Origin: a virus
Taxonomy: Duplodnaviria > Heunggongvirae > Uroviricota > Caudoviricetes
DNA: 64,000 nucleotides
Strand: one strand, 5' to 3'
Virus record (IMG/VR): IMGVR_UViG_3300032070_000001
Span: 12,183 to 76,182 of that record
Below the pieces are notes generated by a model. It worked only from the letters and a program-made list of their open reading frames with translations, searched no databases and was not told the DNA's origin. Each line of letters begins with the position of its first letter. The first letter of the stretch is position 1. This document shows positions 17,569-17,955 of the stretch, one piece after another. Both the position numbers and the translations under genes were made by a program.

Positions 17569-17955
17569 CTACTCTTCGTCTTTGTCTTCCTCGTCCTCGT
17601 CCTCCCAGTCGTCCTCCTCGTCGTCGTCGTCGTCGTCGTCGTCGTCGTCGTCGTCGTCGTCGTCGTCGTCGTCGTCGTCGTCGTCGTCGTCGTCGTCGTC
17701 GTCGTCGTCGTCGTCGTCGTCGTCGAGCAGATCATCTTCCTCGTCCCAGTCATCCAAATCGTCATCCAAATCGTCATCCAGATCGTCGTCCAGATCGTCG
17801 TCCAGATCGTCGTCCAGATCGTCCAGATCGTCCAGATCGTCATCGTCAAGACCGTCGTAGTCGTAGTCCTCTTCCTCGAAGTCCGTGCCTACATCCTCGA
17901 AGTCATCGTCCCGATCCTCGGGCCGTTCCGAATCACGCAAGTCGTCGATGGGCAT
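17569..17955 (-). CDS. hyper-acidic poly-Asp protein (about 128 aa, over 30 consecutive Asp)
   Basis: MPIDDLRDSERPEDRDDDFEDVG...DDLDDLDDLDDDLDDDLDDD...(D)n...EEDDWEDEDEEDKDEE. GGAGAG RBS upstream of ATG 17953-17955. The tabulated ORF 17569..18072 is N-extended. Confidence 0.55.
   Translation of the reverse strand: MPIDDLRDSERPEDRDDDFEDVGTDFEEEDYDYDGLDDDDLDDLDDLDDDLDDDLDDDLDDDLDDDLDDWDEEDDLLDDDDDDDDDDDDDDDDDDDDDDDDDDDDDDDDDDDEEDDWEDEDEEDKDEE
17629..17725. repeat. perfect (GTC)n / (GAC)n trinucleotide microsatellite, about 32 units
   Basis: Uninterrupted cgtcgtcgt... run. It encodes poly-Asp on the minus strand. Confidence 0.95.

Follow-up and report, generated by a model that had tools for sequence, protein, structure and literature searches.

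Why would a phage encode a protein made almost entirely of aspartate (D) and glutamate (E), and what is a long, perfect run of a single codon doing inside its gene? The question is raised by a 128-codon open reading frame (ORF) in 64,000 nucleotides of a Caudoviricetes genome (IMG/VR record IMGVR_UViG_3300032070_000001, positions 12,183 to 76,182; this whole stretch is referred to as the window). Our preferred reading is that the ORF is a functional accessory gene of a family of disordered, hyper-acidic proteins in phages of Thermoguttaceae, that its product acts as a polyanionic decoy, and that its block of 35 consecutive aspartates (D35) is a young slippage array. We give this combined reading a probability of about 0.45, slightly under even odds.

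A hypervariable GAC array in a hyper-acidic gene

The translation of the ORF comprises 81 Asp, 16 Glu, 12 Leu and four Lys or Arg residues, arranged as MPIDDLRDSERPEDRDDDFEDVGTDFEEEDYDYDGLDDDD(LDD)3(LDDD)5LDDWDEEDDLL-D35-EEDDWEDEDEEDKDEE and ending in ...EEDKDEE. The preliminary description of this DNA, which reported an ORF of nearly pure Asp and Glu behind a GGAGAG ribosome-binding site, is confirmed on both points. Tandem coding units of 12 and 9 nt stand upstream of the D35 block. AlphaFold2 predicts essentially no secondary structure for the protein, with a mean predicted local distance difference test score (pLDDT) of 56 and a predicted template modelling score (pTM) of 0.16; the run used the single sequence, and its disorder result is indicative rather than conclusive.

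A perfect repeat of 108 nt cannot have arisen by chance in 64 kb. That more than 30 Asp residues follow one another without interruption had been described correctly, although the span given (17629-17725, about 32 units) is some three units too short for an array of 35 GAC codons at 17618-17725. Triplet runs of at least six units are found at two places in the window, the GAC run of the acidic ORF and a second GAC run at 26761-26802. Typical bacterial or phage coding repeats are far shorter than a pure array of 35-38 codons.

We retrieved relatives of this region with the neighbouring metallophosphoesterase as bait, which gave 14 viral and 55 metagenomic loci, and added near-identical contigs (loci carry L numbers here; the metagenomic relatives are labelled by JGI (Joint Genome Institute) contig identifiers only). 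The closest is a 102-kb ENA contig (L001), which over 20.8 kb differs from the window by one mismatch and two indels. Both indels fall inside the acidic gene: one of 12 nt in the LDDD array (five units in the window, four in L001) and one of 9 nt in the GAC array (35 versus 38 codons). In a third sample (L003) the GAC array has 34 codons. The assemblies with 34, 35 and 38 codons are otherwise near-identical, with one mismatch in 20.8 kb and one in 2.0 kb. Replication slippage has made the D35 block a young (GAC)n array, whose length varies in frame among genomes that are identical elsewhere. The array had been expected to be slippage-prone, in frame and polymorphic in length, and a comparison of repeat length across relatives had been proposed; made on short-read assemblies, that comparison finds that the lengths do differ. 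The locus thus has a perfect repeat within a gene and a copy number that varies among near-identical genomes, as in a hypervariable coding simple-sequence repeat. Since the units are 3 and 12 nt long, every allele keeps the frame, and among the GAC and 12-nt alleles compared we found no on/off phase switching by frameshift.

In a fourth contig, L002 (positions 1-508), a (GAC)8 run links the acidic gene, of which the 3' end is present, with unrelated sequence that includes a topoisomerase-type zinc-ribbon fragment. This contig has the look of an assembly chimera formed exactly at the microsatellite.

Among more distant relatives, most acidic proteins have D/E-only runs of 6-16 residues and lack long homopolymer runs. 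Long D runs occur in L027 (D27, in place of the C-terminal motif), L004/L020 ((ED)9 followed by D16) and L057 (D15). Those of the window lineage and of these relatives are all pure GAC except for a single GAT in L057, a purity that marks them as young. Across about 500 kb of related loci, all perfect triplet runs of at least six units are GAC except one ACT run (L018), and the GAC runs sit in the acidic ORF, the tail of a ParB-like protein or a mini-ORF of L018, with the (GAC)8 of L002 at the same position of the gene. The L018 mini-ORF (3236-3319, plus strand) encodes 27 acidic residues (MAPFDDDDDLIDEDDDDDDDDDDDE) behind a GGAGAG site, contains a (GAC)10 run, and has upstream of it a distant ParB-like gene as well as a homologue of the window ORF at 25977-26714.

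The second GAC run of the window is, as previously noted, the only other one, and it does lie on a ParB-domain protein; its product is 14 Asp rather than 13, and it spans 26761-26802 rather than 26761-26800. The protein ends in ...SDNDHDS-D14, and the array has the same length in the window and in L001. Relatives of the ParB-like protein were searched for with the tail removed, because the pattern DDDDDDDD swamped the search. Among those found (L074-L078 and L018), five that are 51-58% identical have short mixed acidic tails (...EEEDEPCDTS, ...REDEEAEP), and one that is 34% identical has a mixed-charge tail (...AAAKAADISQL); all are free of poly-D, so D14 is a lineage-specific extension of an already acidic C terminus. 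It probably arose independently, when GAC codons expanded in an acidic tail that was short but already present. The suggestion that poly-Asp appendages are a recurring device of this phage is weakened, since the ParB relatives and most relatives of the acidic protein lack poly-D and the long runs are young GAC. From the absence of poly-D in relatives and the purity of the GAC codons, both runs look like recent slippage expansions of acidic, length-tolerant segments.

Does the array contribute anything to the gene that carries it? We see an even chance that the gene is functional while its poly-Asp tract, like the ParB tail, tunes nothing, serves as no device and is left behind by GAC slippage at no cost or a slight one. 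The rarity of long D runs among relatives, their pure or nearly pure GAC codons, their differing positions, the replacement of the C-terminal motif in L027, the poly-D-free ParB relatives and the drift by a few units between identical genomes all fit such a by-product. Against it, four lineages show such expansions, each time in this gene alone, which may indicate tolerance and some benefit of added charge.

The acidic family and the case for a decoy

A small, syntenic, hyper-acidic ORF occupies a variable slot in about 20 distinct relatives of the window. The family members have 64-128 residues, 59-80% D+E and net charges of -41 to -93, with bulky residues (W, F, Y, L) every few positions. 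They share three motifs, MP(A/D)DDL..PELPEDRDDDFED at the N terminus, DPYFDD in the interior and DEDDDW(D/E)DEDEE(Y)EE at the C terminus, the relatives ending in EEYEE or DEYGA. A purine-rich, Shine-Dalgarno-like GGAG or GGAA element stands a few nucleotides before the ATG in all members with upstream sequence available (18/18). Within a subfamily, differences at the first, second and third codon positions number 99, 62 and 337, and the excess at third positions is the signature of selection on protein. With these counts, the conserved start and Shine-Dalgarno-like site and the conserved motifs, we rejected the possibility that the ORF is not a gene. Comparative sequence evidence identifies it as a real coding gene of a conserved, previously undescribed family, of which the window member is the most extreme. 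One locus, L109, carries a frameshifted acidic ORF beside a tRNA-Asn.

The family was recovered through synteny and degenerate DNA motif scans only. A profile built from an eight-member alignment drew 8000 word-sharing candidates from 5.8 billion proteins, none of them significant, and a search with the non-repetitive N-terminal 41 residues drew five candidates, none of which scored. An exhaustive phmmer search of 1.84 billion representatives with the N-terminal 76 residues returned no matches, and four family members looked up by exact sequence are absent from the protein collection. The window protein matches no Pfam or PHROG family; seven less repetitive constructs (six relatives and the N-terminal 77 residues of the window protein) likewise match none at E<=10, and no PDB chain matched the acidic protein or its relatives in a sequence search. 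That profile searches found nothing while synteny and motif scans succeeded indicates that HMMER-type tools are blind to this composition.

Between L010 and its relatives L009 and L011 (about 90% DNA identity) there is a clean 926-nt indel (L010 5044-5969) that contains two small ORFs of unknown function, the acidic ORF and a tRNA-Asn. The acidic ORF and the tRNA are both absent from several other relatives too. Its place within this indel marks the acidic gene, at the level of genome comparison, as accessory, dispensable and cassette-like. The features of the window are collected in Table 1.

Table 1. Coordinates of the acidic locus and of the ParB-like gene in the window
Feature	Position	Strand	Remarks
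tRNA-Asn(GUU)	17437..17520	-	84 nt; 6-bp anticodon stem; unusually long variable region; only tRNA of the window
GC-rich hairpin, 7 bp	17526..17545	-	in the 48-nt spacer between the stop codon of the acidic ORF and the tRNA
Hyper-acidic protein gene	17569..17955	-	128 aa; 76% D+E; net charge about -93; predicted disordered
Perfect (GAC)35 microsatellite, D35 product	17618..17725	-	108 nt; 36 units in TCG phase; hypervariable
Tandem 12-nt (LDDD x5) and 9-nt (LDD x3) coding repeats	17749..17844	-	12-nt array polymorphic: 5 copies in the window, 4 in L001
Shine-Dalgarno GGAGAG	17960..17965	-	4 nt before the ATG of the acidic ORF
ParB-like protein	26757..27740	-	ParB_N and HTH_ParB above Pfam cut-offs; last 14 residues Asp
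D14 tail codons	26760..26801	-	1 GAT and 13 GAC; lineage-specific

By analogy with known acidic phage proteins, a polyanionic decoy or mimic role, already raised in the preliminary description, appears the most reasonable function. The protein would serve as a flexible, polyanionic imitation of nucleic acid that occupies basic DNA- or RNA-binding surfaces of host proteins; candidate targets are restriction or defence nucleases, nucleoid proteins and RNA polymerase. Charge would supply avidity and the aromatic residues would supply contact points. The poly-D block would add charge and length to a protein whose function hangs on composition rather than sequence, and its length would be free to drift. 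If function resides in charge and a few anchors, the acidic spacers should tolerate slippage, which would explain both the recurrent GAC expansions and the drift.

Several points weigh against this reading. There is no homology-based link to any target, in profile and structure searches that are blind to such a composition. A floppy polyanion is unlike the rigid B-DNA mimics Ocr and ArdA. Nascent chains rich in D and E with occasional prolines destabilise ribosomes, most of all near the N terminus (10.1101/2021.02.02.429294; PMC9718836), and bulky residues counteract this intrinsic destabilisation (10.1101/2021.02.02.429294); the conserved bulky residues could thus merely prevent ribosome abortion and not be contact points, and D35 should be hard to translate, so that protein yield may be low. 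As for the array, single allele lengths need read-level confirmation, and the chimeric L002 indicates that short-read assembly struggles at the repeat.

Genomic setting and rival readings

The acidic gene lies within a replication module and not at the leading early end. On one strand the module comprises a family-A DNA polymerase (PolA), a ParB-like protein, the metallophosphoesterase, the tRNA, the acidic ORF, four small ORFs, a helix-turn-helix (HTH)/Mre11-like exonuclease, a trypsin-like protease, an SNF2 helicase, a DNA methyltransferase (23922-25253), two unknown genes and a second ParB-like protein. The two ParB-like paralogues, at 15173-15976 and 26757-27740 (both on the minus strand), flank the region of the acidic gene. 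A primase is encoded on the opposite strand, and a ligase, an endonuclease VII, HNH endonucleases and a kinase lie farther along. Relatives keep the order helicase, protease, exonuclease, small ORFs, variable slot, metallophosphoesterase, ParB and PolA, and this synteny persists in relatives whose metallophosphoesterases are 43-85% identical. The window has further tandem repeats at 53061-53314, 51546-51832, 907-1124 and 49744-49796, which comprise 27-nt and 18-nt units (97% and 92% matches) in a minus-strand ORF, a 132-nt repeat, Gly-rich repeats of 15-39 nt and a CAGCGG array; they are probably in structural or fibre genes.

A near-identity search with 16 kb found no close isolate phage among 50,697 isolate phage records. 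Relatives of the well-conserved exonuclease that are 55-86% identical occur in metagenome-assembled genomes (MAGs) of Thermoguttaceae, Planctomycetia and Planctomycetaceae, one of them within a 4.2-Mb chromosome, which points to Planctomycetota (Thermoguttaceae) as the host clade. Relatives of the replication module are present in large Planctomycetota MAG contigs (L105, L106, L109) and in a complete chromosome (L108, the 4.2-Mb Thermoguttaceae record OY762224.2), which suggests integrated or co-binned forms.

The tRNA stands downstream of the acidic ORF at 31-77 nt in most relatives. It is mostly tRNA-Asn, with tRNA-Tyr in L015/L048 and L027 and tRNA-Met in L057. In loci with complete coverage of the interval, every tRNA at the site is accompanied by an acidic ORF. 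The cassette tRNAs of relatives are 73-76 nt long (L004 5773-5847, L007 5906-5980, L010 5907-5981, L015 3856-3931, L057 3718-3791) and have unusual anticodon arms: five distinct sequences have C33 for the universal U33, two have G37, and the anticodon loop is of 8 nt in L004/L020 and of 6 nt in L035. We rejected the tRNA as a phage attachment site, since it is surrounded by replication genes and there is no integrase in its vicinity, and as a supply for the Asp codons, since its anticodon is GUU (Asn) and not GUC.

Scanning IMG/VR for the motif DDDWDDEDE uncovered a second family of hyper-acidic ORFs of about 90 residues (MPIIDLMEMEIELLALDPADPSNYDPISEDEDDDWDD...DDDAF), with three DDDW repeats and mixed GAT and GAC codons (L084 5908-6180, minus strand, L081, L089, L093, L094, L095, L097 and L100). 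These contigs have no detectable genes in common with the window; the neighbours of the acidic ORF there are a ribonucleotide reductase, a RuvC-like resolvase, a gp32-type single-stranded-DNA-binding protein (SSB) and a helicase loader. In 8/8 loci a tRNA-Glu(UUC) follows 43 nt downstream. Other acidic ORFs of the same scan (L086, L087 and L102) are without a tRNA. The motif also occurs in L088, L079, L085 and L099, phage proteins that are SSB-like or have an oligonucleotide/oligosaccharide-binding (OB) fold. In their C-terminal regions Lys-rich blocks alternate with acidic/Trp ones, and the termini read ...DDDDWSDED, ...DDDDWDF or ...DDDWDDDD. The acidic family thus has the DDDW-acidic motif in common with likely SSB tails.

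The repeated pairing raises the possibility of a mimic-plus-insurance cassette, in which the adjacent tRNA replaces host tRNA cut by decoy-sensing defences of the PARIS kind. The polyanion would block nucleic-acid-targeting immunity, the tRNA with its altered anticodon arm would insure against defences that sense polyanions and cut tRNA, and the microsatellite would let the length and charge of the decoy vary rapidly within a population. There are published precedents for the mechanism. Ocr, Ptr1/Ptr2 and Arn set off PARIS, which cuts tRNA-Lys, and a variant tRNA lets T5 escape it (PMC10802454, PMC11455837); against retron-Eco7, the tRNA-Tyr of T5 rescues infection (PMC11555353), and anticodon-loop mutations in phage tRNAs evade host nucleases (PMC10264068). 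The short spacing in most family members, the joint loss in the 926-nt indel, the odd anticodon arms (C33, G37 and an 8-nt loop in tRNA-Asn) with the long variable region of the window tRNA, and the recurrence in two phage groups without detectable common genes all favour the cassette. It presupposes a PARIS-like system or a nuclease targeting tRNA-Asn in Thermoguttaceae, however, and a shared insertion hot spot or co-transcription may account for the linkage. The loci are not independent of one another in phylogeny. An acidic ORF with no adjacent tRNA occurs in three to five lineages (L016, L032, L036 and L037) and in the three tRNA-less loci of the motif scan, and the tRNA region of T5, which we checked, contains no hyper-acidic ORFs. 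On balance we regard the cassette as unlikely.

Acidic tails of SSB proteins are protein-interaction modules, and the acidic protein might instead be a mimic of such a tail that binds a phage or host polymerase, primase, helicase or ParB-like protein and regulates replication rather than countering defence. Its location in the replication module, the DDDW-acidic ends of the SSB-like proteins, and the ...DDDDDAF terminus of the second family beside a gp32-type SSB and a helicase loader are consistent with this. Close relatives that retain the same replication genes nonetheless dispense with the gene, and no SSB was identified in the window. The hydrophobic or aromatic C-terminal tip typical of SSB is missing from the window protein, which ends in KDEE, and from its relatives; only the L084 family has one (...DDAF). 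We put the chance of such a role as small.

A third alternative makes the ORF a cis-acting translational sensor, an acidic leader whose Mg2+- or factor-dependent ribosome abortion would control how the downstream tRNA and replication genes are transcribed or processed, as in MgtL/mgtA. The ribosome-destabilising effect of D/E-rich chains with prolines, the family's acidity from residue 3 (start MP..D..P) and the position of the ORF directly upstream of a hairpin and tRNA are compatible with it. Hairpins are found in the equivalent spacer of L010, L027, L040 and L084, and two hairpins are conserved, GCCAC...GUGGC and CUCACCGU...ACGGUGAG (L010 5842-5910, L027 364-440, L040 971-1040). These two persist where the tRNA is Tyr rather than Asn; for two of the three cases the z-scores lie between -2.8 and -3.8. 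Still, 64-128 residues is long for a leader, and conservation at the protein level extends over the full length, to the C-terminal DDDWDDEDEE(Y)EE and the regularly spaced aromatics. As bulky residues suppress ribosome destabilisation, their presence suggests selection for completed translation. A scan near the gene found no attenuator or U-tract terminator, and a consensus scan found no sigma-70-type promoter and no convincing terminator there. A sensor therefore seems improbable. That the polyanion is a sink buffering Mg2+, Ca2+ or polyamines in the infected cell is hardly credible, its extreme carboxylate density being the sole point in favour, as chelation does not need conserved aromatic motifs, a stoichiometric sink requires very high expression of a hard-to-translate protein, and no transport or metal genes are associated.

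Relation to known systems

Acidic nucleic-acid mimics are a main phage route for disarming restriction and related defences. To our knowledge, those that have been characterised are nearly all folded proteins from phages of model hosts. The family described here adds a conserved variant, near-homopolymeric and predicted to be fully disordered, from the phages of Planctomycetota, a clade in which phage biology has hardly been explored. It offers direct evidence of a phage genome whose fastest-changing site is a coding triplet microsatellite, and a natural system in which to see how ribosomes deal with acidic nascent chains of great length. The repeatable order of acidic ORF and tRNA makes the link of acidic phage proteins to tRNA-cleaving immunity, described only recently, a genomically testable prediction.

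As a repeat, the array resembles contingency loci and the Asp repeat of human asporin, where slippage of a perfect short repeat within a gene alters copy number and product. It differs from contingency loci in its triplet units, through which slippage adjusts the length of the product and does not work as an on/off switch. The ParB-like protein invites comparison with HMGB1-type D/E-repeat tails, in which an acidic run is likewise tethered to a DNA-binding domain; in the ParB-like protein the run is homopolymeric. D/E repeats autoinhibit DNA-binding proteins and tune their target search (PMC10250230); by analogy, the D14 tail may compete intramolecularly for the HTH DNA-binding surface of its own protein. 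Such tails have been described mainly in eukaryotes, whereas here a lineage-specific (GAC)13 expansion sits on a phage ParB-like protein and autoinhibition is a prediction.

Phages or plasmids encode the small, strongly acidic proteins Ocr, ArdA and Arn, which act as competitors of DNA for restriction and defence enzymes. They are rigid, folded B-DNA mimics in which roughly a third of the residues are acidic. The presence of a DNA methyltransferase in the window implies that evading restriction matters to this phage. The earlier assignment of the acidic protein to the class of Ocr and ArdA nevertheless fails on similarity: it resembles no Pfam, PHROG or PDB entry, Ocr (PF08684) and ArdA (PF07275) included, in searches whose sensitivity is limited by composition-bias filters. 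The single-sequence AlphaFold2 model gives no sign of a fold or of a compact mimic dimer, and the place of the gene is within the replication module, not at the end that is injected first.

Both anti-restriction factors and PARIS triggers are recognised among small acidic phage proteins, the structures of which are diverse (PMC10802454). With 128 residues and a net charge of about -93, the window protein is small and strongly negative as those triggers are. The likeness to the PARIS triggers (Ocr, T5 Ptr1/Ptr2, T4 Arn) and rescuing tRNAs thus lies in small acidic proteins and in phage tRNAs whose anticodon arms are altered. The triggers of T5 do not adjoin its tRNA, whereas here only 48 nt separate the acidic gene from the tRNA, and where one is lost the other goes with it.

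The closest working analogue, in our judgement, is the disordered acidic domain of SPO1 Gp44. Residues 56-122 of Gp44 are disordered, 57% D/E and free of basic residues; they bind the beta and beta' subunits of RNA polymerase and are proposed to act as a flexible polyanion resembling single-stranded DNA (PMC8208478). The window protein shares with this domain that it is phage-encoded, predicted to be disordered, more than half D/E and almost devoid of basic residues (four K/R). In Gp44 this segment stands between a folded DNA-binding domain at the N terminus and a further domain at the C terminus; the window protein has no other domain and is acidic, and predicted to be disordered, throughout. 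The two have no sequence relationship, and the window protein is the more acidic (76% versus 57%) and carries the microsatellite.

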